This document shows, piece by piece, positions 3,128 to 25,352 of a stretch of DNA of 29,794 nucleotides; the stretch's first letter is position 1, and every line of letters begins with the position of its first letter. The position numbers were made by a program, and so were the translations under genes. Below the pieces are notes generated by a model. The model was not told where the DNA came from, did not search any database, and was given only the letters and a program-made list of their open reading frames with translations. The DNA comes from a virus: IMG/VR virus record IMGVR_UViG_3300020204_000022, positions 72,555 to 102,348 of that record. One strand, 5' to 3'.

Positions 3128-3565
3128 ATGAATCATTTGGAATCCTTTTTTTCTGTCGTGAAAGAATCTCGAAATTCCACAGACGATGGTGAAAAAATGA
3201 CCTATGATGATTTAATTATTTTTTTTACTGAATTAGGAATTTTTGTTTTTGAGGATCAAATCCAAATGAAAAAATTCGTTGAACAATTCGGAAGAGGCAA
3301 AGATCCCGAGGAATGGGCTGAATATCTTTTTGATTACTATCACAATCCCTATGAATATGATATTGAAGAAGATTCTGAATATTACGAGCAGATCTGTCAA
3401 TTTTACGAGGATTCAGTCGACCCCCACAAGAGGTTTGATTTACATGGATCAGCTATGAGAATAGGACAATACCAGAGATTTGATTTAGATGACATAGAGA
3501 AAACACCAGAATATAAATTGTACAAGGTCATGTCTGAAAAATTAGGTAAAAGAAAAATATCGTAG
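3128..3565 (+). CDS. hypothetical acidic protein, possible internal head protein
   Basis: ORF with start moved to ATG 3128 (MNHLESFFSVVKES) behind GATATATA. Confidence 0.7.
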   Translation: MNHLESFFSVVKESRNSTDDGEKMTYDDLIIFFTELGIFVFEDQIQMKKFVEQFGRGKDPEEWAEYLFDYYHNPYEYDIEEDSEYYEQICQFYEDSVDPHKRFDLHGSAMRIGQYQRFDLDDIEKTPEYKLYKVMSEKLGKRKIS

Positions 3566-12318: not shown

Positions 12319-12326
12319 GATATATA
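12319..12326 (+). promoter_or_regulatory. putative late promoter GATATATA
   Basis: 8 nt upstream of ATG 12335. Confidence 0.55.
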
Positions 12327-12334
12327 GTCCAACT

Positions 12335-12730
12335 ATGGAACCTAACCCACTCGCCGATACCATACGTGCTATTTTGCACGAAGAACTTTCTCTTACTAGA
12401 ACAGTCCCTTCCAGCGATCTTAGAATTATTCAGATTGCTATGGAAGATCTTAAAAACTCTCAGGCAGAAATGAAAAGAGAGCTATCAGATATTAAGAGAA
12501 AATTGCTTGATCCAGATGATGGGGTTATAGTCAAGGTGAACGAAAACACCAGATTTCGAGCCGAATTTGAAAGAAGGCAAGAACGTGAAGACATTGCTTA
12601 TCAAAAGATGCTCTTAGAACACTCTGATCTTGTGAAATGGAAATCCGGGGTAAATAAAGCACTTTGGATTTTCTTCACCACACTAGTTGGTATTCTTGCA
12701 AAAATATTTTTCCTATCGGAAACACCTTAA
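12335..12730 (+). CDS. coiled-coil protein with C-terminal transmembrane helix (holin/XhlA-like topology)
   Basis: Heptad-like MEDLKNSQAEMKRELSDIK; hydrophobic ALWIFFTTLVGILAKIFFL tail; start moved to ATG 12335. Confidence 0.6.
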   Translation: MEPNPLADTIRAILHEELSLTRTVPSSDLRIIQIAMEDLKNSQAEMKRELSDIKRKLLDPDDGVIVKVNENTRFRAEFERRQEREDIAYQKMLLEHSDLVKWKSGVNKALWIFFTTLVGILAKIFFLSETP

Positions 12731-12733
12731 ATT

Positions 12734-12910
12734 ATGAAAACAGTTACACCACAATCAAAATATACCACACCCGATAATTTCATCAAGTGGTACGACCAAA
12801 AGATTTTTGGAACCAAAAAAGGGTCACTGGGATTGAAACATTCTACAGTGGGAAAATTGATGGGGTTTGAAGATTTTAAGAAAACTTTCACTGGTTTACA
12901 ATCTAAATAA
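12734..12910 (+). CDS. 58-aa peptide with DNFxKW motif (absent from the ORF track)
   Basis: MKTVTPQSKYTTPDNFIKWYDQKIFGTKKGSLGLKHSTVGKLMGFEDFKKTFTGLQSK; taaattATG context; fills the gap exactly. Confidence 0.75.
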   Translation: MKTVTPQSKYTTPDNFIKWYDQKIFGTKKGSLGLKHSTVGKLMGFEDFKKTFTGLQSK

Positions 12911-12927
12911 TTTCAATCCTCTTTTTG

Positions 12928-12965
12928 GAAATTTTTTTGACATTTGATGTATAAACAACATCAAA
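12928..12965 (+). promoter_or_regulatory. putative promoter GAAAT-N17-TATAA with inverted repeat TTTGATGT-N7-ACATCAAA
   Basis: Read directly upstream of the glutamine synthetase ATG. Confidence 0.5.
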
Positions 12966-12978
12966 ATTAAAATTTCTT

Positions 12979-14037
12979 ATGAAAATAAAATTGGAATATG
13001 TATGGCTTGATGGATATGAACCAGAGCCTAATTTGAGATCTAAAATAAAAATTTTAGATATTCCATTCGAGGGAGAAAGTTCATTTTCTCCAATGCACTG
13101 GGCAAGAAATAATTTTTCTAAAATTCCAGAATGGAATTTCGACGGTAGTTCTACCAGACAGGCAGAAGGAAAACTTTCCGATTGTATCCTAAAACCGGTT
13201 AAGATTTATCCAGACCCGCTCAAATCGGGATTTTCATTTCTTGTGTTATGCGAAGTTTTAAATTCGGATTATTCCCCCCACATATCAAATACTAGGGCAA
13301 AAATTTCAAATGACAATCAAGATGTGTGGTTTGGATTCGAACAGGAATATGTTTTGAGAAAGTTCGATAAAGGAAGAAGTCTTCCCTTGGGATTTGAAAG
13401 CTTCGAATTTCCGGAAGAACAAGGAAGATATTACTGTTCAGTAGGACATCCATATTCTTCTGGAGGAGGAATCCCAGAACAACATCTAGAAGCTTGTTTG
13501 GCTTGCGGAATCAATATTACCGGAATTAATGCAGAGGTGATGCTCGGACAATGGGAATATCAAATTTTTGGAACTGGGGAAAAAACAGCGGCAGACGACC
13601 TTTGGATATCTAGATTTCTTTTGCTTCGAATTGCAGAGTCTTGCAAAATAAAAGTTGATTTTCACCCAAAACCCATGCAAATAGGGGATTGGAATGGTTC
13701 TGGAATGCACACCAACTTTTCAACACACGGTATGAGGGAAACCGGCGGAAAAGAACTTTTTGATAAAATATGTGGAGAACTAGAAAAGTCACACGAAACA
13801 GCAATTGGATTTTATGGATCTGATAATCATCTGAGATTAACAGGAAACCACGAAACACAAGACATCGAAAAATTCAGCTGGGGGGTTAGCGATAGAGGTG
13901 CTTCAATTAGAATTCCCTTATCTACCTCTCAATCGTGGAAAGGATATTTGGAAGACCGGAGGCCAGGATCAAATGCAGACCCATACAAAGTCACCAATTA
14001 TCTTTGTGGAGTCCTGGAGTCAATTTCTGAAAAATAA
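12979..14037 (+). CDS. glnA: glutamine synthetase type II
   Basis: EYVWLDG, WNFDGSST.QA.G, GFEQEY, GINAEVM.GQWEYQ, DWNGSG.HTNFST, HET, RGASIRIP, YLEDRRP.SN.DPY; 352 aa is GSII size. Confidence 0.96.
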   Translation: MKIKLEYVWLDGYEPEPNLRSKIKILDIPFEGESSFSPMHWARNNFSKIPEWNFDGSSTRQAEGKLSDCILKPVKIYPDPLKSGFSFLVLCEVLNSDYSPHISNTRAKISNDNQDVWFGFEQEYVLRKFDKGRSLPLGFESFEFPEEQGRYYCSVGHPYSSGGGIPEQHLEACLACGINITGINAEVMLGQWEYQIFGTGEKTAADDLWISRFLLLRIAESCKIKVDFHPKPMQIGDWNGSGMHTNFSTHGMRETGGKELFDKICGELEKSHETAIGFYGSDNHLRLTGNHETQDIEKFSWGVSDRGASIRIPLSTSQSWKGYLEDRRPGSNADPYKVTNYLCGVLESISEK

Positions 14038-14042
14038 AAGAT

Positions 14043-14348
14043 ATGAAGACGAATTTTTCTTTCAGTGATGATCTTTCTTTTGAAGAGAAGGATAAATTTT
14101 GGTCGATAATCTATGCCCAGGTTTCAAAAGCAATCACAAAAAAACATGATTACACAATCATTTTTCAAATAGATGATAAAGAGGTTGGTGGCGAGGGTTA
14201 CTCCATCATTATTGAAAAACAAAATTTTGAACTTTTTCTTAAAAACTTTCTTCTTTGGTGCGAAGAATTAGAACGTTATGAAATTTGCTCAGAGGTAAAA
14301 AAACAAATACAAAAATTAAAAAAATGGAACATAAAGACTACAAGCTAG
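14043..14348 (+). CDS. hypothetical protein with UVR-like motif
   Basis: C-terminal EELERYEICSEVKKQI. Confidence 0.7.
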   Translation: MKTNFSFSDDLSFEEKDKFWSIIYAQVSKAITKKHDYTIIFQIDDKEVGGEGYSIIIEKQNFELFLKNFLLWCEELERYEICSEVKKQIQKLKKWNIKTTS

Positions 14349-14548
14349 CCAACTCAGCCTACGTTCAGGGGATGAGGGTTGAAAAAGGTGATATTCTGAG
14401 AGAATTATCAACCAGAAAAACTGTTAAGGTTTTGAACGTATACAAAAATTCACAGGATCAGACCCTTTTACAAGTGGAATATAATGCACCTGGTGACTTT
14501 GGTCTACCATTTCAAAAAACAGTTGATTCTTTTCAATTTTTGACCTGA
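14324..14548 (+). CDS. hypothetical protein
   Basis: ORF; start moved to ATG 14324. Confidence 0.65.
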   Translation: MEHKDYKLANSAYVQGMRVEKGDILRELSTRKTVKVLNVYKNSQDQTLLQVEYNAPGDFGLPFQKTVDSFQFLT

Positions 14549-14581
14549 TTCATCTGTTGTTATGAATATATAAGTGAGAAA

Positions 14582-14791
14582 ATGATTTTACTTATGTCTC
14601 AACCTAAATCAATCGAAGATCTAAATTGGGCTCTAGGAATTTATGCAGAACTTATAAAGAATGGAGAAAGAAGTTCTGCCTGGAAAGAAAATGAATCTTG
14701 TTTGGAAATTTTGGAATCATTTGAGGAATACGAAAAGTGCGAAGAATTATATCGGGTTCTAACCAAAAGGAAAGATCCAAGGAATAAATAA
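14582..14791 (+). CDS. hypothetical protein with UVR-like motif
   Basis: ESFEEYEKCEELYRVL; AATATATA box upstream. Confidence 0.7.
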   Translation: MILLMSQPKSIEDLNWALGIYAELIKNGERSSAWKENESCLEILESFEEYEKCEELYRVLTKRKDPRNK

Positions 14792-14802
14792 AAATAAAAA
14801 AA

Positions 14803-15063
14803 TTGGAAAACGAGCCAAAACTGGATCGAAATATTTATGAGAGTGCCCTTCAGAGAATGGAAAAAATGGGTTCTCGGGCTTTGATGCACCCACACCTGAT
14901 TCAAAGAAGGGAAATCATCAAAGCTTCCTTGTTATTGTACTACGAGTCAACGGAGGAATACGAGAAATGTAAATATGTAACCGAATTCTTTTTAAAATTA
15001 GAAAAGGATCTTCTCATTGAATCCATAGTGAAGTCAGCAGAGAAAAAAAATTTAGAATCTTAA
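14803..15063 (+). CDS. hypothetical protein with UVR-like motif
   Basis: YYESTEEYEKCKYV; TTG start after an A-rich leader. Confidence 0.7.
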   Translation: MENEPKLDRNIYESALQRMEKMGSRALMHPHLIQRREIIKASLLLYYESTEEYEKCKYVTEFFLKLEKDLLIESIVKSAEKKNLES

Positions 15064-15145
15064 AATTAATTTTTTCGAATTCGAAATTTTTCTTTTCAAC
15101 TTAAGTATATAGCAAAACCCGTTCGGGACAAAATATAAACAACCC

Positions 15146-16681
15146 ATGAGTTCATTTTCACTGAGAGATCTAGTTTTAAAGTATGAAGAAGAAATCCGAC
15201 AGTTACACCAGAACGGTCTAAGTAAAACTGATATTGCAAAAAAAATTGTAGAGGACAAACACATAACTTTAGGCTCTGCCCAATTGGATTCATTTCGTAG
15301 AGCAATTTCTTCTCGTTTAGCAGAGCCAGATTCGGAATCAGAAGTTGCAGAACACATACAGGAAAAATTTAAACACGAAGAGGTAGAGGATGAAGATTTA
15401 GAAAAAATGATTCAGGAAGAAGAATCTGCAGCTAGATCAGCATTTAAAAAGTACAAACATAGCACCGATTATTATTACGACGAATCCAAAGATTTATACA
15501 TCGTCTATATCAAAAATAAGGCATACAAATTTACTGGCACAATTATTCGTGACATGAAAAGCAGGTATTCTGCTTTAACCGGATCATCTGAATCTATAAA
15601 CGAGATTTGTAGAAATTTTGAAATTCCTCGAAACATCTTTGTTGCTTTGAAGACAATTTTGGGATGGACCCACGATTCTGAGCCTTTTACCGACGAGGAG
15701 ATGTTCATGAGAGGAGAGGAGGAAATGGTGGCAGATGCCTTGCAAAAAAGAAAATTTTCTTTCTTCCAGAAATATACGAGAGAAGAGGAAAAAATGATCA
15801 AAGAGGCGGCAAGCAATTGGTGGGCATTTAGGGGTTTAATCATCAATCCTTTAGTTGAAAAACTTTCCCAGGTTTTTGCCAAATATGAAGTACCCAAATT
15901 GAAATTACCTGAAGGAGATCCCCATTCATTAGTGATCTCCCCCTTCGATCTTCATTATGGAAAATATTCATGGTCTGGGGAAGTTAGGGAGGCATACAGT
16001 AGACAAACTGCTAAAGACCTTTTGATGGCAAAGACCGCAGAAATTTTGGCCGACGTTATCCATTACAATGTGGAAAAAATTGTAGTTCCTGTTGGATCTG
16101 ATTTTTTCCATGTCGATACTCTTGGTGGTACAACCACCAAAGGTACCCCACAAGATTGCGATGGAACCTTCATTCAAATTATGGTTGAAGGACAACAGCT
16201 CATGGTTGAATTCATTGACACTCTAAGACAGATAGCTCCTGTTGAAATTCTTTTAACCGCAGGAAATCACGATTTCAAACTTTCTCACGTTCTTTTACAA
16301 TATCTAGGTGCATATTATCGGAATTGCACTGATGTCAATGTTATCCGTTGTCACAAGTTCAGACAGTATTTTGAGTATGGTGAGAATCTGCTGGGCTTCA
16401 CACACGGAGATGGTACAAAGCTCCAAGAACTTCCCTATCTTATGGCTAACGAAGCACAAGAGGCTTGGGCCAGAACCAAACACAGGAGTTTTTTCACCGG
16501 ACACCTCCATCACGAAATGGTGAAAGATTATAAGGGGGTTAAAGTATTTCAAATGCCAAGTCTTTCGGGATCGGATAGGTGGCACCACAACCACGGATAT
16601 GAAGGATCTACCCGAGCATTACATGGTTATCTAATTCATCCTTCTAAGGGTTTGAAGGTTACCCTTATGGCCAATGTATAA
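15146..16681 (+). CDS. calcineurin-like metallophosphoesterase with N-terminal HTH-like regions
   Basis: DLHYG, GSDFFH, AGNHD, THGD, GHLHH; N-terminal GLSKTDIAKKI and SINEICRNFEI. Confidence 0.85.
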   Translation: MSSFSLRDLVLKYEEEIRQLHQNGLSKTDIAKKIVEDKHITLGSAQLDSFRRAISSRLAEPDSESEVAEHIQEKFKHEEVEDEDLEKMIQEEESAARSAFKKYKHSTDYYYDESKDLYIVYIKNKAYKFTGTIIRDMKSRYSALTGSSESINEICRNFEIPRNIFVALKTILGWTHDSEPFTDEEMFMRGEEEMVADALQKRKFSFFQKYTREEEKMIKEAASNWWAFRGLIINPLVEKLSQVFAKYEVPKLKLPEGDPHSLVISPFDLHYGKYSWSGEVREAYSRQTAKDLLMAKTAEILADVIHYNVEKIVVPVGSDFFHVDTLGGTTTKGTPQDCDGTFIQIMVEGQQLMVEFIDTLRQIAPVEILLTAGNHDFKLSHVLLQYLGAYYRNCTDVNVIRCHKFRQYFEYGENLLGFTHGDGTKLQELPYLMANEAQEAWARTKHRSFFTGHLHHEMVKDYKGVKVFQMPSLSGSDRWHHNHGYEGSTRALHGYLIHPSKGLKVTLMANV

Positions 16682-17098
16682 ATGAAATTCAATAATATGT
16701 CAGAATACGGTTCTTTTCAAATCGATCTTATAACATCAGAAAAAGCAGAAAAAGAAAAACTAGAATTTCTTCAATCGGAAATTTTGAAATTAAATTTCGA
16801 AAAAAATTTATTGGAAAAAATTTCGGACAGCATCGAGATAGGGAAAACTGGGTTTTGGGAAATTTTCTTGGAGGAGGATGGAATTGAAATCCTAGATGAT
16901 GAAGATTTCTCGAATTTGATCTTTACCCTAGAATCTATCTTTGGTGGATTTGACCAGGGATCAAATTATTCATATACAGTAGATCTTCCATATTCTTCCA
17001 AAGTTTGGAAGAAAGAATCTGACGGGTGGGATTTAATTTTTGAAGAGGAAAATCCATACGAAGAAGAAGAAGGTTTCAATCACTGGGACGATGAATGA
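16682..17098 (+). CDS. hypothetical acidic protein
   Basis: 138-aa ORF abutting the previous stop. Confidence 0.7.
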   Translation: MKFNNMSEYGSFQIDLITSEKAEKEKLEFLQSEILKLNFEKNLLEKISDSIEIGKTGFWEIFLEEDGIEILDDEDFSNLIFTLESIFGGFDQGSNYSYTVDLPYSSKVWKKESDGWDLIFEEENPYEEEEGFNHWDDE

Positions 17099-17867
17099 TC
17101 CTTTACGTTCTTATGGAGGTCCCGGATATTTTAGAGCCATTTCCAAAAGCAACAAGGAAGAAAATTTATCAAGGATTAAAGAATCTTCGAATTCTGGAGA
17201 ATCATTCGGAACAAATCCTAGCCGATTCCCCACCAAAGCCTTCGTTATTAATTTAGATAGAAGATTGGATCGCTGGGATGAATTCAAATCCAGAAATTTA
17301 GATTTATTCGATAATTTTAATGTTACTAGGTTTTCGGCTGTTGAGAAAGAAGACAGACAGTCTGCAATTTTCGAATCCCATTTTTCGTGTTTAAAACAGG
17401 GACTATCCAAAGAAGAATGTGTTATTATAATGGAAGACGACTCTTATTTGGTTCCTGGAGCTTTGTCGAAGTTGAAATCCGCATTTGACGATTTGCCATC
17501 TGATTGGGATTGTCTGATTGGCAATCATTATTTTTTTGGTGAAATTCAAGTTTTAACACATAACCTTGCCAAACCTTTATCGTATGCATCAACGATCAAC
17601 TTTGTGGTTTACAGAAACACAATTATTTCAAAAATTGCAGAAAATCTTGAATTTGCAAATGAATTTCCGGACTTCGACCACTTTATCACGTCAGAAAAAG
17701 TTCCAATCCAAAATTACACCATTTGGCCTATGATTTCTAGAGAATTTCTATCTTTTTCGGATCACAAACAAAAGGTTAGGAATATGGAAATTAGAGTTGC
17801 CGAAAATTCAAATTTGTTTCAATTCATCGATTCTGATTCTTATTATCCATCTATTCCAAACTGGTGA
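17091..17867 (+). CDS. glycosyltransferase family 25-like protein
   Basis: FVINLDRRLDRW..F, RFSAV, SH, IIMEDD, LPSDWD; start moved to ATG 17091. Confidence 0.82.
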   Translation: MNDPLRSYGGPGYFRAISKSNKEENLSRIKESSNSGESFGTNPSRFPTKAFVINLDRRLDRWDEFKSRNLDLFDNFNVTRFSAVEKEDRQSAIFESHFSCLKQGLSKEECVIIMEDDSYLVPGALSKLKSAFDDLPSDWDCLIGNHYFFGEIQVLTHNLAKPLSYASTINFVVYRNTIISKIAENLEFANEFPDFDHFITSEKVPIQNYTIWPMISREFLSFSDHKQKVRNMEIRVAENSNLFQFIDSDSYYPSIPNW

Positions 17868-17871
17868 GGGT

Positions 17872-17879
17872 GATATATA
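17872..17879 (+). promoter_or_regulatory. putative late promoter GATATATA
   Basis: 17 nt upstream of ATG 17897. Confidence 0.55.
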
Positions 17880-17896
17880 CTTAAAAACATTAAATT

Positions 17897-18793
17897 ATGA
17901 GTGGATATTCAAACGAACTTTCCGGAGTAGATAATTTTCAAAAGTGGTTGGTGAAACAAAGAAAAGATTCATTTGGGATTGGTGATGAACAGTCAGTAAA
18001 AAATTTCGGGTCATCATCTGAGATATCTAGAGCTTTGGATGCAAAATCTATTTCTCCCGTTTCCGGCCAAATTGATTTGAGTTCTTCTCCCGTTGATAAA
18101 AAGAAAGCAATGGAATCTATCATGGCTTCTCTAAAAAAAGTCGGGATAACAAATCCCTATGTTCAGGCCGGGGTTCTTGGTGTTTGCCATAAAGAAGGGG
18201 GATTCAATATACAAGGGGGGGAAATGTCCTATAAAAATACACCAGCAACTAGAATTCGGGAAGTTTTCGGCAAACGTGTGAGTGGACTATCGAACTCAGA
18301 AATAGATACACTGAAAAAAAACGACGTGGCATTTTGGGATCGGGTTTATGGGGTAGACGACCCAACTGGAATGGGGAAAAAACTCGGTAACACCTCCCCG
18401 GGCGATGGTTTGAAGTATAGAGGGAGAGGTTACAATGGGATAACATTTAAAACTGGCTATCAAAAATACACCGATATGCTTAGAAAAATGAATCCCCCTA
18501 CGAACGTAGATTTGGTTGCAAACCCGGATATTTTAGAAAAAGATTTACAAGTAGCAGCTGATGTTGCCGCTTTGTATTTTTTGGAGGGTTTGAACAATCC
18601 CATAATCAAACGTAAATATAGAAACAAAGACCACAACGATTTTAAAGACCTTAAAACAGCAACAGAAGCTGTTTCGAATGCAAATGCAGGGCCAGGGAAC
18701 AATGTTTACGCTGGTATAATAGGTGATGGGACGAGAAAGGCAATTGCTTTCGCCCAAAATTTAGATTTGGGAAATTTATCACAAACTGCGTAA
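17897..18793 (+). CDS. glycoside hydrolase family 19 (chitinase/lysozyme-like lysin) with N-terminal DNFxKW leader
   Basis: HKEGGF catalytic Glu region, LGN..PGDG.KYRGRG, IT, DLVANPD, AALYF. Confidence 0.88.
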   Translation: MSGYSNELSGVDNFQKWLVKQRKDSFGIGDEQSVKNFGSSSEISRALDAKSISPVSGQIDLSSSPVDKKKAMESIMASLKKVGITNPYVQAGVLGVCHKEGGFNIQGGEMSYKNTPATRIREVFGKRVSGLSNSEIDTLKKNDVAFWDRVYGVDDPTGMGKKLGNTSPGDGLKYRGRGYNGITFKTGYQKYTDMLRKMNPPTNVDLVANPDILEKDLQVAADVAALYFLEGLNNPIIKRKYRNKDHNDFKDLKTATEAVSNANAGPGNNVYAGIIGDGTRKAIAFAQNLDLGNLSQTA

Positions 18794-18832
18794 ATTTCCC
18801 CCATTTTATTTTTATTTGTGGAAATCTTTTCG

Positions 18833-18840
18833 TAATTTTG
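18833..18840 (+). promoter_or_regulatory. Bacteroidota-type -7 promoter box TAATTTTG
   Basis: Matches TAnnTTTG; intergenic, with TTTG at 18815-18818; 18 nt before ATG 18859. Confidence 0.55.
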
Positions 18841-18858
18841 GATATTAAACTTATCCAA

Positions 18859-19296
18859 ATGAAAAACATAGCACCATCCAATTTTCACGTATGGCGAAGG
18901 AGAATCCAAAAAATCTACATTTGGATTGTCAGAAAATTCGACATAGACTATTCTAACAGGTCAGAACTACTACCCCACGAGGGGGATTGTGTAGTTTTAT
19001 GCAAAAAACTCGTTAAAATGAGAGACTCGGTCATTTTAATGACCCCCCTCACAGACAAGAGGTACATTAAAAATCAAAGACTTCAGATTTATGTGATCAT
19101 GCAAAACCAGCACGTTCAAATTATAAATAACGTCCATTCTTACTCAGTTTCCCTAAACCAACGGAGTTGGAAAAGACTAATTGATTTTTACAATCTTGAA
19201 ATGGAAGAACGTCGGTTAGGATTCGAATTGGAAATAACCTCCAACATCAAGCACTCGCTTAAAACAATTTTGAATGAACTCGAACAAAAATCCTAG
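18859..19296 (+). CDS. hypothetical protein
   Basis: ORF; start moved to ATG 18859. Confidence 0.7.
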   Translation: MKNIAPSNFHVWRRRIQKIYIWIVRKFDIDYSNRSELLPHEGDCVVLCKKLVKMRDSVILMTPLTDKRYIKNQRLQIYVIMQNQHVQIINNVHSYSVSLNQRSWKRLIDFYNLEMEERRLGFELEITSNIKHSLKTILNELEQKS

Positions 19297-19603
19297 AAAT
19301 TACGGGTTTCAAATTGCCTTTTGGGCCGGCTTGCTTGTGACTCTGTTTACCTGTATCCTAATCCTAGGATTGGTTTTTCAAATTTTCGATCCTCTTCAAA
19401 AATTAATTTATTTACAAATCAAGTCGATAAAAACTGAGCTTTCCTCTCCAAAAGACGAAGTACAACCAAGGGAAATTGCAGAGGATTCACCCCGAAAAGA
19501 CACAATCGTTGTAATAGAAAAAATTTCGCAGGCGTGTAACAGAAACCATTGTGACCCAGATTCTTTGCCCCCTTTATCTTCCCCTTCCGCAGATTCAAAT
19601 TAA
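19274..19603 (+). CDS. single-pass membrane protein
   Basis: Hydrophobic IAFWAGLLVTLFTCILILGLVF; KDTIVV. Confidence 0.7.
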   Translation: MNSNKNPRNYGFQIAFWAGLLVTLFTCILILGLVFQIFDPLQKLIYLQIKSIKTELSSPKDEVQPREIAEDSPRKDTIVVIEKISQACNRNHCDPDSLPPLSSPSADSN

Positions 19604-19610
19604 ATTAAAT

Positions 19611-19727
19611 ATGTCAACCAGAAATTTAAATCCAATCTTTTCCTTTATCTCCAATCTAATTTTATTTGTCATTTTGGTTTTTTTCCTTTATGGGATGTAC
19701 ATTTTAATTAAAGATATTCTTTTATAA
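19611..19727 (+). CDS. 38-aa membrane peptide (absent from the ORF track)
   Basis: MSTRNLNPIFSFISNLILFVILVFFLYGMYILIKDILL; fills the intergenic gap. Confidence 0.55.
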   Translation: MSTRNLNPIFSFISNLILFVILVFFLYGMYILIKDILL

Positions 19728-19738
19728 AATTAAGAAAA

Positions 19739-20350
19739 ATGGAAAAAATTAAATTTTTTCGGGTCGAGGACAATCGTCCTTCTGTAGATAGAGTCAAAGA
19801 CTTTGGAAAATCCCTTCTATTTTGGAAAGGTAGAAAAAAAGGGATGATTCATACTCGTGATTTGAAGTGGGACGATATTCGTTTTATATTCTTTCCCAAA
19901 AACTTTGCCGAAAAATATGGTTATTTGGGATCCATCCCTGATTACAAATACTATGACCAAGCTATGGTTCCATTGGTTTTGGCTATGGATTATGAGGCAA
20001 AACCATGGTGGTGCCCACGTTGGTTTCTTAGATTCCTTCAAGTATTTGGTAATGATAGTTCTATTGTAAGGGTTCGTAACCGAAAGTTACATAATCTACA
20101 TAATAGATTAACTAAAGGAATTACATTCTATGATTATAAGACAAAGTGGGAGTGGTATGATTTAAGAATTTCAGTTGCGGGGCCAGAATACATTCAAGAT
20201 TTGGCGGATGCTATTGAAGATCATTATTACAAAGTTGGTAAAAGAAAAGATACTATTAAACAAATTAAGACATTCGAGCCTGAGTTTGATAAAACATATA
20301 TGAATACAAAGGATCTTGATGATTATTTAGAAACCTTATACGCTAAATAA
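19739..20350 (+). CDS. hypothetical protein
   Basis: 203-aa ORF, W-rich (KPWWCPRWFLRFL, KTKWEWYDLRI). Confidence 0.75.
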   Translation: MEKIKFFRVEDNRPSVDRVKDFGKSLLFWKGRKKGMIHTRDLKWDDIRFIFFPKNFAEKYGYLGSIPDYKYYDQAMVPLVLAMDYEAKPWWCPRWFLRFLQVFGNDSSIVRVRNRKLHNLHNRLTKGITFYDYKTKWEWYDLRISVAGPEYIQDLADAIEDHYYKVGKRKDTIKQIKTFEPEFDKTYMNTKDLDDYLETLYAK

Positions 20351-20373
20351 GAAATTATTTTGTATATTTAAGT

Positions 20374-21093
20374 ATGAAAACAATATTCATTGGAGATATC
20401 CATGGCCGTTCAATTTGGAAGGACATTGTAGCAAAAGAAAACGCTGATAGGGTTATCTTTATTGGAGATTACTTTGATTCTTTCGATATACCTGGCATAG
20501 ACCAAATTCATAATTTCAAAGAAATAATTGAATGCAAAAAAACAAGCGGTAAAGAAGTTATCCTATTAGTAGGTAATCACGACTTTCATTATATGAATGT
20601 TGGTGAAACCTATTCAGGTTTTCAACCCACTCTTAAATTTGATATTGAAATGGTGTTGAAAGAAAATATGGAACATCTTCAAATGGCATATTCCTTTGAT
20701 AAGTTCCTATGTACACACGCCGGTGTATCTTCAGTATTTATGGATAGGTGGTTTAGAAATATGTGGAATTGTGATAATTTGGTTGAGAAATTAAATGAAA
20801 CATTTATATACAGCCCATCTATTTTTAAATTTACAGGATGGGACCCCTATGGTGATGATGTAAACCAATCACCAATTTGGATTCGTCCACGATCTTTGTT
20901 ATGGTCAAATAAAAAAAGAGGAAAAGATTCTATCAAAGGTAGATTTATTCAAATTGTAGGCCACACTGGGGTCAGCTCTATTGATATCAAAGCAACAGAT
21001 AAATCAATGGGGGGTAAATACTATATGATTGATGCTTTACCTTCAAAAGAATATTTAATATATGATGGTGAACTTAAAGTTGGAAAATTATGA
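20374..21093 (+). CDS. calcineurin-like metallophosphoesterase
   Basis: GDIHG, GDYFD, GNHD, THAG, WIR, VGHT, ID motifs; TATATTTA box at 20363-20370. Confidence 0.92.
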   Translation: MKTIFIGDIHGRSIWKDIVAKENADRVIFIGDYFDSFDIPGIDQIHNFKEIIECKKTSGKEVILLVGNHDFHYMNVGETYSGFQPTLKFDIEMVLKENMEHLQMAYSFDKFLCTHAGVSSVFMDRWFRNMWNCDNLVEKLNETFIYSPSIFKFTGWDPYGDDVNQSPIWIRPRSLLWSNKKRGKDSIKGRFIQIVGHTGVSSIDIKATDKSMGGKYYMIDALPSKEYLIYDGELKVGKL

Positions 21094-21368
21094 TGAACGC
21101 AACAACAAAAGAACAAGAAGCAATTAGGGAATGTTATAGGAAACTATATAAGGCATCCACCCCATCAGCTGATTTTGATGAATTAATTAATAAAGCACCC
21201 ATAGATGAAAATGGGCAAAAGGTAATTGATTTTATGGCATATGAAATTTGTGAAAACGAATTTTCTCAAATTGTAGATGAAGTTATTAAAAAATATAAAA
21301 TTAAAACCCGCAGAGTAACACCATTTAAAAACTCTATCTACCTTGGTTGTAGTCCTAAATTTAAGTAA
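21090..21368 (+). CDS. hypothetical protein
   Basis: 92-aa ORF, ATGA overlap. Confidence 0.7.
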   Translation: MMNATTKEQEAIRECYRKLYKASTPSADFDELINKAPIDENGQKVIDFMAYEICENEFSQIVDEVIKKYKIKTRRVTPFKNSIYLGCSPKFK

Positions 21369-21376
21369 TAGAGAAA

Positions 21377-21826
21377 ATGAAAAAACAAATTTATCTAGAT
21401 GACGTTAGAACCCCCAAAGAAGATATTTGGGTGGTGGTTAGAAATTATGGTGAGTTCGTGGAAACGGTAACGAATATAGGATTGAAGAACATAGATGTAA
21501 TTTCCTTGGATCATGATTTAGGTGATACAGCTATGACAGAGTATTTCACCAACGTCAGTCCTAACTACAAACTAGATTACTCAAACATTCTTGAAAAGAC
21601 TGGAATGGATTGCGCTAAGTGGCTGGTCAATCATTATCTTGACAATTATATTACTCAAGAGAGTAGGTCAGAAAAAAAATCATCTGGTATTGTTTTTCCA
21701 CAAGTGTATACTCATTCGGCAAATCCGATCGGATCTGCCAACATTATGGGATATATCAATAATTTTTGGAAGAATGAGGGCCAACCTCAATCTTGTGTTC
21801 GTGTGAATATTCCACACTTTGTTTGA
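21377..21826 (+). CDS. divergent receiver-domain protein (cyclic-phosphate-processing REC type)
   Basis: IYLDDVRTP, VVRNY.EF, ISLDHDLG, KTG.DCAKWL, HSANPIG. Confidence 0.8.
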   Translation: MKKQIYLDDVRTPKEDIWVVVRNYGEFVETVTNIGLKNIDVISLDHDLGDTAMTEYFTNVSPNYKLDYSNILEKTGMDCAKWLVNHYLDNYITQESRSEKKSSGIVFPQVYTHSANPIGSANIMGYINNFWKNEGQPQSCVRVNIPHFV

Positions 21827-21836
21827 TATTTTGTTG

Positions 21837-21844
21837 TATATTTG
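21837..21844 (+). promoter_or_regulatory. Bacteroidota-type -7 promoter box TATATTTG
   Basis: TAnnTTTG, 12 nt before ATG 21857. Confidence 0.6.
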
Positions 21845-21856
21845 TAAAAAAATAAT

Positions 21857-21910
21857 ATGAAAAAATTCACAATTTTGGGGAAAAATTCGTTCAAAATTCG
21901 AAATAAATAG
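21857..21910 (+). pseudogene. 5' stub of a disrupted metallophosphoesterase
   Basis: MKKFTILG then unrelated sequence; compare MKTIFIG-DIHG at 20374. Confidence 0.45.
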
Positions 21911-21917
21911 GAACAGT

Positions 21918-21945
21918 GAAACATGTTCTGGCCCAGATTATATAA
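21918..21945 (+). promoter_or_regulatory. putative promoter GAAAC-N18-TATAA
   Basis: Recurrent motif ahead of ATG 21991. Confidence 0.55.
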
Positions 21946-21990
21946 TTCAAATATAAAGAAAATGATAAATAAAGTTTTCAATTTATAAAA

Positions 21991-22842
21991 ATGAAAAAAG
22001 CATTTGTTTCATTCTATGTTGGGTATGAATATGAAAGAATGACTAATCTTCTCAAAGAAAGTATTGAAACTTTTTCTGATAAACCCTTGATTGTTTTCAC
22101 CCCTAAAGATTTTGACTTAGAATTCCTCCCTGAGAATTGGAAACCTGGTTATATTTATATTTATAAAATTTTATCTTGTTTAAAATTATTGGAAGAGTTT
22201 GATGAAGTGGTTTGGCTAGATTCTGATTGTTTAGTTACCCACAACATTGAAAAAATTCGGGATTACAAAATTGATAAATTTCCTTTATTGCCTAGGGCTA
22301 GGTTTTATAATTTTGTAAATTGGCCAATGCCTTTTTTTGAATGTAGAAGCCCCCATTTCATGGGTGCTGCAAAACAAAAGGTTGAATGTTTTGACCTAGA
22401 TTTCCCCGATGTTTATCTTCAGGCCTGTTGTATGTTTATAAATAAAGATTGTGAACCTTTTTTAAGGGAAGTATTATCTTTTTTCGAAGATTTCGACGGG
22501 GAAAGTTTCTTTTTTGGTGATGAATCTATTATCAATTCTCTTTTTTGGAAATATAAAAATTCAAAAAACCTAGGTGATGTTTTTTTGTGTTCTCATTATT
22601 TTAGTTCTTACATATTCGATTCATTTATTACACTCCAGAAAGCTGAAGATTTTCCAAAATTGTTTGATCCTTCTTACGATGGTATATTTCCAATTGGTAC
22701 ACACCCTAACATTGAACTTAATACACATAACCGTTTAAAATTAATTCATAATAATTTTGAAAATATTTTGTTTTTTCATGGTACTAAAAGTTATGATAAG
22801 CATGAAAATTATCTTGATTCTTTAAAAATTTATAGAAAATAA
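21991..22842 (+). CDS. putative glycosyltransferase (GT-A, GT8-like)
   Basis: YKI, VVWLDSD, ACCMFINK, DESIIN, FFHGTK. Confidence 0.72.
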   Translation: MKKAFVSFYVGYEYERMTNLLKESIETFSDKPLIVFTPKDFDLEFLPENWKPGYIYIYKILSCLKLLEEFDEVVWLDSDCLVTHNIEKIRDYKIDKFPLLPRARFYNFVNWPMPFFECRSPHFMGAAKQKVECFDLDFPDVYLQACCMFINKDCEPFLREVLSFFEDFDGESFFFGDESIINSLFWKYKNSKNLGDVFLCSHYFSSYIFDSFITLQKAEDFPKLFDPSYDGIFPIGTHPNIELNTHNRLKLIHNNFENILFFHGTKSYDKHENYLDSLKIYRK

Positions 22843-22914
22843 ATTGATGCCTTGGAAATTGGTAAATTTCTCATCGATATTGATGGCAAACTTTCCGTAG
22901 GAGAAATTTCTTAA
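22843..22914 (+). pseudogene. 3' stub of a disrupted metallophosphoesterase
   Basis: IDALEIGKFLIDIDGKLSVGEIS* aligns with IDALPSKEYLIYDGELKVGKL*, the C-terminus of 20374-21093. Confidence 0.6.
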
Positions 22915-22926
22915 TTAAAAAATCTA

Positions 22927-23337
22927 ATGATTTCAAATTCACAAATACAACAGATTTCTTTTTTATTTTCTAAATTTTTGTATCCGCCTAAAAAAAATTA
23001 CGATCTAGAGGAACTCGGTAACAAAATAGGTGTAGCAGTTGCTAGATCTGTTTCAACTCTGAACCCAGACCAGATACAAGAATTCATATCCGGATTTATT
23101 CATGGGGTAAATCTAAATTTGGAAAATACAAAAGAAAAAGAAATTGAGAAAAAGAAATTCGATATTGATCTTGTTTATCAAAATTATTACAATTCCTGGA
23201 TGATGACAACGAACGACCCACTTCCGAAATCTGACTTCATTGCCCGGGTAATAGAAGACAAAGATTTTGCAAAAATATGGGGTGCAATCCCCCCAGATCC
23301 GCAATCGGGTTCAATCAGAGAAAGAAACGACGACTGA
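22927..23337 (+). CDS. hypothetical protein
   Basis: 136-aa ORF. Confidence 0.7.
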   Translation: MISNSQIQQISFLFSKFLYPPKKNYDLEELGNKIGVAVARSVSTLNPDQIQEFISGFIHGVNLNLENTKEKEIEKKKFDIDLVYQNYYNSWMMTTNDPLPKSDFIARVIEDKDFAKIWGAIPPDPQSGSIRERNDD

Positions 23338-23397
23338 AAAAACAGACGTTTGGATAAGATGTGATACAAGAAAACCACATAAATACTTTAGATAAAT

Positions 23398-23405
23398 GAT
23401 ATATA
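23398..23405 (+). promoter_or_regulatory. putative late promoter GATATATA
   Basis: 14 nt upstream of ATG 23420. Confidence 0.55.
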
Positions 23406-23419
23406 GAAAAAAAATAATT

Positions 23420-23821
23420 ATGAAAAATCTTATTCATTTTGAATCTTTTGATCAAATTGGAGCTCACAATATAAACGAGGAGACATCGAATATATCTTTA
23501 AAAAAATTGGATTCTATGTCAGATACACAACTCTACGATTATTTTTATAAATTAGTTAAAGAAAATCCCGATTCTTATATAAAATATCTCAAAAGCATGG
23601 GATTCAACCCAGTTACCGCTTCCAAATTATATCAGGTAGATTCTAATATGTTGATTCAATTTCTCGAATCCGTTAAGAAGGGGAAACCCCTAGGGTCAGA
23701 TAGTCCTAAAGAAAAAGAATATATGGGGAAGAGATTCAAAGCTGCTTTGTATATCTTATCTGGATTGATCTTGATGGGGGCAGGAACCGAGGGTGAAGTA
23801 TTGGTAAATGGAAAAAAATAG
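23420..23821 (+). CDS. hypothetical protein, possible internal head protein
   Basis: MKNLIHFESF...INEE N-terminus; hydrophobic stretch near the C-terminus; start moved to ATG 23420. Confidence 0.7.
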   Translation: MKNLIHFESFDQIGAHNINEETSNISLKKLDSMSDTQLYDYFYKLVKENPDSYIKYLKSMGFNPVTASKLYQVDSNMLIQFLESVKKGKPLGSDSPKEKEYMGKRFKAALYILSGLILMGAGTEGEVLVNGKK

Positions 23822-23833
23822 ACCCCTTAAATT

Positions 23834-24838
23834 ATGTCAAACCCAAATTTTTTTATCAATGAATTTTCTGGAGTAGATAACTTCGAAAAATGGCTGATTA
23901 AACAAAGAGAAGAAGCTTTTGGAAAATACAAACAAGATTCTTTGGGTGTAAATTCGGATGGAACCCAAAATGGAGTTAACAAAATAGATTCTTCTGGTGT
24001 AAATTCGAATCAAAACCCATCACAACAAACAAATTTAACAATCAATACAGAAGGAAAAAACAATAAATGTTCAGACTGGATATCAAGCTCAAATTATTGG
24101 CAAACTTCTGACGGTAAGAATTTGCAACAATTGGCTTCACCGTTAGTATTATCAAAAAATACAGGCTTGGGTGGAAACTACAACCCTAAAGTTTTCGAAG
24201 AAAACGTCCAAAATCCGAAAGTTTGGTGGTCAGTTTTTGATATAAACAACAATCGGTTTTTAGCAGAAAGTAAAGATTCTAATAAAAACGTTTATGGTGC
24301 TTCTGTTCCTAAAGTATGTGTAGCTTCGGCAGCATTATCTGTGAATAACGGAACACTCCCAACAGACAAAGATTTGAATTCGCTTATAAAACTTTTGGTG
24401 AAAAGTGATAACAATGTTTGGGATAAAATTTCTGAACTAGGTGGAGGCACCTCTGGAGTAAACGAATGGTCAAAAGCTTTGGGTTTTAAAATGACCCCAG
24501 CAAGAAGAGGAGGAAATAATTGCAATGCACACGATTTGGCTTTGTTTTGGAATTTAATTTGTAAAAATCAAATCCCGGGTTCAGAAAAAATTTTTAAAAT
24601 AACTTCTGCTTGTGATACAAGTAAGTCTAGATCAAGATTATATATGCCTAAAGATGTTTTAATAGGGGGTAAAACCGGATCTTATATGAAATCAAATCAC
24701 GATTCTTGTTGGTTAAAAAATAGCAAAGGTTTTTTTTCTATCACAGTACTCACAGAATTAGGTTCCGGTCCAGGTAGTAAAGGTAGTAATATTATTGCAA
24801 ACCTTTTCCGGGGTCTTTATAATCAATATTGTGATTAG
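23834..24838 (+). CDS. serine beta-lactamase/PBP-fold hydrolase with N-terminal DNFxKW leader
   Basis: ASVPK (SxxK), KSDN (SxN) and GKTG (KTG) in canonical order. Confidence 0.85.
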   Translation: MSNPNFFINEFSGVDNFEKWLIKQREEAFGKYKQDSLGVNSDGTQNGVNKIDSSGVNSNQNPSQQTNLTINTEGKNNKCSDWISSSNYWQTSDGKNLQQLASPLVLSKNTGLGGNYNPKVFEENVQNPKVWWSVFDINNNRFLAESKDSNKNVYGASVPKVCVASAALSVNNGTLPTDKDLNSLIKLLVKSDNNVWDKISELGGGTSGVNEWSKALGFKMTPARRGGNNCNAHDLALFWNLICKNQIPGSEKIFKITSACDTSKSRSRLYMPKDVLIGGKTGSYMKSNHDSCWLKNSKGFFSITVLTELGSGPGSKGSNIIANLFRGLYNQYCD

Positions 24839-24891
24839 AAAATTTTATAAATTTGGAATTTGTAAAATATATATAAATAAAAAAGATTATC

Positions 24892-25352
24892 ATGGAACAT
24901 TTATTAGAATACGATAATTTTTTGAATGAAATGACACCTCAGAATAATAATCTAGGTTACACTTTCGAAAATTGGAAAAAAAAGATCCTAAAACACGCAT
25001 AATGAAAGTTATAAAACAACCTGACTTCAAATCTTGGAATTTCTTGGCGCATGCCGAAAAGAACAAATGGTCTGTAGGAATTTCGGTTGTTGAAGATGCA
25101 GGTGATCCAAATGTATCAATAAAAGTCTCTCATGTAGACGGAAAACCAACAAAAGAATACGATATTATACAAAAATTAGCGATGGAACATTTATTCAAAT
25201 TAAAAGGGGCTTCAAAAAATATTTCTTCTGGTAGTAGGTATTTCGATGTTAAAGTTCCTAAAAATGGAAATATTGGACCAATAGCAGATTTTGTTGAAAA
25301 ATGCTATAATATGTGTTGGAATGAAAAGACATTACCAAGGAATATTTATTAG
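24892..25352 (+). CDS. hypothetical protein split over two frames at an A8 run (24976-24983)
   Basis: ATG 24892 frame MEHLLEYDNFLNE..NWKKKILKHA* (stop 25000-25002); the -1 frame stays open to 25352; AATATATATAAATA upstream. Confidence 0.55.

Follow-up and report, generated by a model that had tools for sequence, protein, structure and literature searches.

Two putatively wall-directed enzymes of an uncultured phage, a GH19-type lysin (protein A) and a hydrolase of the class-A beta-lactamase / penicillin-binding protein (PBP) fold (protein B), begin with the same short peptide, marked by the hexapeptide motif DNFxKW. Both are encoded within the window analyzed here, a stretch of 29,794 nucleotides (nt) covering positions 72,555 to 102,348 of IMG/VR record IMGVR_UViG_3300020204_000022 and forming the last 29.8 kb of this 102,348-bp viral contig (record G000). 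Judging from sequence comparisons, the DNFxKW leader is the local spelling of an ancestral helix belonging to a large GH19 lysin family of uncultured phages. We propose, as an evenly balanced judgment, that this helix is a flexibly tethered protein-docking or regulatory element. The two carriers and their leaders are located as follows.

17897..18793, plus strand: GH19-type lysin of 298 amino acids (aa), protein A (PHROG 181, PDB 4ok7, AlphaFold2 and Foldseek).
17918..17977, plus strand: leader helix of the lysin, residues 8-27, with DNFxKW (AlphaFold2, conservation, family profile).
17978..18091, plus strand: variable S-rich linker, then a conserved short beta-hairpin element, residues 28-65, leading into the catalytic domain (alignment and AlphaFold2).
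23834..24838, plus strand: class-A beta-lactamase / PBP-fold serine hydrolase of 334 aa, protein B (PF13354, PDB 5tfq, motifs).
23864..23923, plus strand: leader helix of protein B, residues 11-30, preceded by FFINE (BLASTP against the lysin, family profile).

An initial annotation, made from the letters alone, had recognized a GH19 lysin and a PBP/beta-lactamase-fold protein at these positions, and database searches agree with both assignments. The lysin matches the PHROG 181 endolysin family (E 1.5e-18) and, by sequence, PDB 4ok7. Its AlphaFold2 model has a mean predicted local distance difference test score (pLDDT) of 86.9 and finds phage GH19 endolysins (4ok7, 8p8e, 9eoi) as its best Foldseek matches. 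Residues E100 and E109, which we take from knowledge of the family to be catalytic, are invariant in 30 homologues and correspond to a pair of glutamates 9 residues apart in the family alignment. Protein B scores 34.7 bits against PF13354 (cut-off 22, E 1.5e-8) and matches PDB 5tfq (E 1e-4) with the SDN and KTG motifs aligned; SxxK is also present. A class A beta-lactamase proper is not supported, as the residue aligned to the omega-loop glutamate of 5tfq (the general base Glu166) is not a glutamate and the NCBIfam bla_class_A profile gives 24.7 bits against a cut-off of 200. Protein B is best described as a putative beta-lactamase / PBP-fold serine hydrolase of unproven substrate, for which we infer an activity on peptidoglycan.

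The N-termini of the two proteins align by BLASTP over 24 residues, with 16 identities and 22 positives (E 2e-9), close to the 16 of 22 identical positions first counted, and the rest of the proteins is not alignable. In the six-frame translation of the whole contig, DNFxKW occurs in only three copies, each 12-15 residues from the start of an open reading frame (ORF). At the DNA level, the 24 shared codons are identical at 53 of 72 nt. Synonymous changes affect 9.3 of 13.3 sites (pS 0.70, near saturation) and non-synonymous changes 9.7 of 58.7 sites (pN 0.165), with a ratio of non-synonymous to synonymous rates (dN/dS) of about 0.09, so that the synonymous divergence seen at first reading is borne out. 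Outside the shared codons, identity between the two genes falls to random background, both over the 60 nt before them and over the 72 nt after them. Because the synonymous sites are near saturation, dN/dS is low and the flanks are at background, the two copies are old and the peptide, not the DNA, has been conserved. Thus, the leader peptide itself is under selection. In 15 population variants of protein B, about four positions of the leader vary, all conservatively. The two genes also share an identical 7-nt start context, TTAAATT. As a shared DNA module it was discarded, being the A/T-rich start context common in this genome plus three bases, unconserved in orthologues. Since the start context is not kept in the lysin orthologues, conservation acts at the protein level, which rules out an RNA-level element.

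The helix can be traced to the lysin family. A search with the whole lysin gave more than 100 homologue clusters at 44-64% identity, and those that cover the N-terminus of the window lysin (at least 97% of its length) have the helix at the same position. The order within the family is a M-K-x-h-K-x-F-x-x-F...N-E leader, a polar spacer, the helix, a variable linker, a small conserved hairpin and the GH19 domain; some members also carry PF01471. The helix itself follows a pattern made up of a near-invariant Phe, an aromatic residue at +3, a Leu, a branched residue, a basic Q/K-R-R/K stretch and a closing Gly. The M-K-x-h-K-x-F-x-x-F...N-E leader is present in most family members and has been lost in the clade of the window lysin. 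A hidden Markov model (HMM) of the helix built without the lysin, its near variant or protein B recovers the lysin at E 2.7e-7 and protein B at E 9.2e-6. Run on the 115 ORFs of the contig, the same-family helix HMM matched these two proteins and nothing else. Moreover, the helix is better conserved than the linker, with identities of 0.64 vs. 0.33 within the clade and 0.36 vs. 0.13 across the family.

In the AlphaFold2 model of the lysin, residues 8-25 form an isolated helix (pLDDT about 74), and residues 1-7 and 27-39 have pLDDT values below 50 and are predicted to be disordered. The S/N/Q-rich linkers that had been noted after both leaders are indeed present. The helix has a negative mean Eisenberg hydrophobicity and a hydrophobic moment of about 0.31; its net charge differs between the two carriers (lysin +2, protein B -1). 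In agreement with the initial annotation, there is no signal peptide: no hydrophobic signal-like run was found in the first 60 residues, nor a segment of the signal-arrest-release (SAR) kind. Pfam and NCBIfam give no match within the first 65 residues of the lysin or the first 85 of protein B, and no PHROG match covers the leader, so that it belongs to no domain named in these collections, as had been suspected. Known wall-binding domains (PG_binding_1/3, LysM, SPOR, SH3) were discarded as identities for the helix, which matches none of their profiles and is too short.

The distribution of the leader is narrow. It was searched for in 1.84 billion representative proteins, in IMG/VR, in JGI metagenomes, in cultured phages and in six whole phage records, namely G000, a relative of 219 kb (G001, 88% complete) and the further related records G002-G005. 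Against the 1.84 billion representatives, a profile of the two leaders found protein B and two short fragments, one B-like (38 aa) and one lysin-like (43 aa); three repeat proteins also came up and are spurious. When the protein B leader was searched in 5.8e9 proteins through a word index, protein B alone matched. In JGI metagenomes, a degenerate DNA pattern found B-type and lysin-type genes, the remainder being chance matches, and in IMG/VR it found only the lysin of the 219-kb relative. No IMG/VR relatives of the whole lysin or of whole protein B were found, and the commonest basic spelling of the helix, used as a pattern, had no match in IMG/VR. Likewise, tblastn of protein B and of its leader against 50,697 cultured phages gave no match. 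Several isolated matches were set aside as chance: IMG/VR matches of a first DNA pattern inside unrelated ORFs, a single match in an Acidobacteriaceae metagenome-assembled genome from a scan of genome contigs, and a third pattern match in G001, in a 49-codon frame without start codon. The family HMM, run in six frames on 1.4 Mb of fetched loci, found only lysins and protein B. A 22-column leader model on the six phage records found one lysin per related genome and two carriers only in G000.

In these searches, the cargo consists of one lysin family, plus protein B in one lineage. What holds is that two unrelated folds share a unit behaving as selected and independently tethered; a portable tag for interchangeable effectors is not supported, with one lysin family, and a second enzyme in a single lineage, as the only carriers found. 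This outcome comes close to a motif restricted to one enzyme family, which had been named beforehand as counting against such a tag. On an 8,853-bp JGI contig, a 38-aa ORF (P0002) has a near-exact copy of the protein B leader and stops directly past the helix; gene truncation, a frameshift or a fusion of another kind could account for it.

Protein B lies in a small cassette with its own candidate promoter.

23396..25352, plus strand: three-gene accessory cassette (transmembrane (TM) protein, protein B, 116-aa protein), missing in G001.
23398..23405, plus strand: GATATATA box heading the cassette.
23420..23821, plus strand: first cassette gene, 133 aa; its N-terminus resembles the T4 capsid tag and a TM segment lies at its C-terminus; no Pfam match.

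The genes that flank the cassette here lie about 215 bp apart in G001. No homologue of protein B was found in the five related records (G001, G002-G005). Because of this, of the missing cassette in G001 and of the GATATATA box of its own, protein B is an accessory gene confined to one lineage and carrying the helix of the lysin family. The cassette fits a moron-like, self-promoted unit, an indel difference between otherwise syntenic phages. One strain (L021) is without the third cassette gene.

The third copy of DNFxKW belongs to a small protein (protein C), which the initial annotation had taken for a stand-alone copy of the leader.

12734..12910, plus strand: small basic protein of 58 aa (C), with DNFxKW at residues 14-19 (cluster, orthologues, constraint).
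12319..12730, plus strand: GATATATA box and 131-aa coiled-coil protein with a C-terminal TM segment, directly 5' of the 58-aa gene.

The 58-aa ORF is a genuine gene under strong purifying selection. It differs from its G001 counterpart by 22 synonymous and 3 non-synonymous changes (dN/dS about 0.02), its protein cluster has 17 members, nearly all of 58 aa, and it is conserved in five related records, with orthologues at 65% identity in three further phage records. The protein matched no family, and a lookup in the ESM Atlas returned nothing usable. A glutamine-synthetase-like gene (PF00120 and PF03951, 12979-14037) stands directly 3' of it and is kept in the 219-kb relative. The TM proteins 5' of protein B and 5' of the 58-aa gene are not homologous, so that there is no repeated two-gene unit.

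Had the 58-aa protein been a free copy of the tag, it could have competed with the tagged enzymes or bridged them. Several features would suit such an adaptor. The motif stands at a similar distance from the N-terminus, and its D-N-F-x-K-W-Y-D-Q core is invariant; this region is the invariant part of the N-terminal half of the protein even at 65% identity, and F-x-K-W also occurs in every lysin leader examined in the phage group. In the five related records, about 5 kb separate the gene from that of the lysin, and among the N-terminal 40 residues of all ORFs the 58-aa protein has the best leader-like score. However, the leader HMMs give it noise-level scores (E about 1) and hhalign a probability of 0.3%. 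Its Smith-Waterman score against the leader has a shuffle p of 0.009, a value without significance when 115 ORFs are considered, and full-length unrelated ORFs reach higher scores. In addition, the F-G downstream of the hexapeptide is not kept in the 65%-identical orthologues, and in G002-G004, where the lysin leader differs from that of the window at most positions, the motif of the 58-aa protein is unchanged, that is, no co-variation is seen. Hence, neither the third leader copy nor the free adaptor or competitor peptide is supported as originally put forward; an adaptor role now looks very improbable. To judge by these comparisons, the 58-aa protein is probably not a copy of the leader and shares the hexapeptide by chance or convergence.

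The main rival to a docking helix is capsid loading. In this explanation the helix, together with the preceding residues ending in N-E, would be part of a capsid-targeting propeptide of T4 type, and the enzymes would be packed in the head and delivered to the next host. The T4 leader has a cut-site consensus, (L/I)-x-E. The leader that precedes the helix in most members of the lysin family resembles the T4 capsid targeting sequence (CTS; PMC3012670) and its cut site, and protein B retains before its helix a five-residue remnant, FFINE, of this upstream CTS-like type. About a dozen unrelated proteins of the contig start with the same M-K-x-h-K-x-F-x-x-F...N-E leader (for example L012:13080-13559, L013:2605-3987, L013:16128-17153, L014:54-1694, and 3128-3562 and 23420-23821 of the window), several of their genes being located 15-30 nt after a GATATATA box. 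It also begins every product of a series of neighboring genes in the 219-kb relative (L111:3146-6018), one of which encodes a GH24 lysozyme. The truly portable N-terminal tag of this phage group is this CTS-like leader, not the DNFxKW helix. The DNFxKW leaders resemble the T4 CTS of IPI-III and Alt (PMC3012670) as short N-terminal peptides on unrelated folds within one large phage genome, with late expression and divergent cargo after them. They differ from it in several respects. The T4 tag occupies about 10 residues at the very N-terminus, whereas here the conserved part covers residues 8-27 or 11-30, starting at residue 8-11, and the first 7-10 residues are variable. No conserved cut site lies before or after the helix: I-N-E is found in protein B and S-N-E in the lysin, and the close lysin orthologues have no conserved Glu before the helix. 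There are only two types of cargo and, in the wider lysin family, the helix stands downstream of a separate CTS-like leader; the clade of the window lysin keeps the helix despite having lost that leader. The lysin gene is followed by genes for small TM proteins, as in a lysis cassette. Finally, the T4-type (gp21-type) prohead protease (PF03420) and gp23 (PF07068) were unmatched in G000 (37% complete) and G001 (88%), a weak point from a low-power search in which the control genomes likewise gave no match. We consider capsid loading unlikely, though not negligible.

Two other explanations do without a protein partner. The foreign hydrolase may have landed behind a duplicated lysin 5' end, the leader then being a hitch-hiking fragment that supplies a start codon and a translation context only. 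The homology limited to the first 30 codons or so, the identical TTAAATT and the accessory status of protein B in a single lineage would suit this account, but a functionless fragment is hard to reconcile with a peptide conserved while its synonymous sites approach saturation, with the conservative nature of all variable leader positions among the protein B variants, or with a start context that lysin orthologues do not keep. It is quite improbable. Alternatively, the helix could be membrane- or envelope-active, tethering the enzymes to the inner membrane or aiding passage of the outer membrane. Cationic amphipathic helices are known on some Gram-negative endolysins, and in many lysins of the family the helix is strongly basic. 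Yet the modest hydrophobic moment, the negative mean hydrophobicity and the net negative charge of the protein B copy make this highly improbable.

In the docking reading, which we prefer, the helix is a short, soluble, ancestral N-terminal module of the GH19 lysins of uncultured freshwater phages of about 150-250 kb. In the lineage of the window, recombination also brought it to the N-terminus of a class-A beta-lactamase / PBP-fold hydrolase that is unrelated to the lysin. Because strong purifying selection bears on it in two different folds, the helix would work independently of the catalytic domain, flexibly tethered and in trans, and as a docking or regulatory helix it would subject the two wall-directed enzymes to one shared partner from phage or host. 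Some points weigh against this reading. The helix may still contact the GH19 domain. The fold of protein B is assigned from sequence profiles only, its AlphaFold2 model having a pLDDT of 28. Moreover, the broad family-level helix profile was run on the 1.4 Mb of fetched loci and the six phage records only, and the library of 1.84 billion proteins was scanned with the narrow two-sequence profile only, so that diverged spellings could exist on other cargo. A more specific version, in which the helix is a second-tier address code, can be put forward as speculation. The docking peptide, as opposed to the T4-like capsid tag usually found before it, would be read by a dedicated phage partner that brings together wall-active enzymes with different folds in a single complex for delivery or lysis, and the 58-aa protein would present a convergent F-x-K-W to this partner; such a scheme is improbable.

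Other known systems offer partial likenesses. Modular Gram-negative endolysins, such as those joining PG_binding_1 to a catalytic domain, also join an accessory module at the N-terminus through a flexible linker to a muralytic domain at the C-terminus, and exchange accessory modules by recombination; here, in contrast, the module consists of one helix of about 20 residues, which is not large enough for a folded wall-binding domain. SAR endolysins (P1 Lyz, phage 21 R) have weakly hydrophobic, TM-like N-terminal segments. As in these enzymes, an N-terminal element on a lysin without cleavable signal peptide could control the place and time of action, but the lysin helix studied here is hydrophilic. 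The GH19 endolysins of SPN1S (4ok7) and KTN6 (gp46, 8p8e) have the same catalytic-domain fold as the lysin. Unlike it, these solved enzymes are without the N-terminal helix and linker, and the alignment begins at about residue 70.

The surroundings of the lysin include the following features.

17872..17879, plus strand: GATATATA box, 17 nt before the lysin start codon, a candidate late-type promoter element.
18859..19727, plus strand: 145-aa protein, 109-aa protein with one N-terminal TM segment and TM peptide of about 38 aa, 3' of the lysin (ORF list).

In relatives, the lysin gene stays together with the 145-aa and 109-aa genes as a conserved block. The 145-aa, 109-aa and 38-aa products are possible lysis partners, the TM segments being read from the sequence. 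Between strains (L019, L020, L022, L024, L026), the lysin is only 57-65% identical and the flanking genes are 71-96% identical; the lysin diversifies, or undergoes allele replacement, faster than its neighborhood. The GATATATA box is found 16 times in forward and 3 times in reverse orientation in the 102-kb contig, and the one 5' of the lysin is also present in G001. According to the initial annotation, all three DNFxKW genes lie downstream of such boxes. This is directly so for the lysin (17872); for protein B and the 58-aa gene, the box precedes the preceding gene (23398 and 12319, respectively).

The contig as a whole has a GC content of 35.8% and nearly all its genes on one strand, and the regions 5' of the genes are A/T-rich and without Shine-Dalgarno sequences. 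It encodes tail-fibre and virion proteins, a DNA polymerase, a primase and a helicase, a Lon-like protease and many glycosyltransferases. Because CheckV estimates its completeness at 37% and its syntenic relatives in IMG/VR are 150-230 kb long, it is part of a large uncultured phage. Identical or near-identical proteins stem from lake and other metagenomes, and the host group of these phages is probably Bacteroidota. The Lon-like ATP-dependent protease (810 aa, L014:5353-7782, minus strand; PHROG 4871, E 1.6e-199) is a conceivable enzyme for the processing or recognition of N-terminal leaders. Two tandem paralogue pairs, of 342/337 aa (L013:16128-18190) and 547/552 aa (L014:54-3377), have near-identical N-termini.

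The analysis defines a conserved but unannotated module at the N-terminus of a large family of metagenomic lysins, and provides a clean single case in which this module was shuffled to another enzyme, encoded on an optional cassette. To our knowledge, almost nothing is known about the lysis machinery of such large uncultured phages. If the module is a docking peptide, it would give a handle on the routing and timing of their wall-degrading enzymes, as well as a compact natural tag for cargo targeting in these phages.

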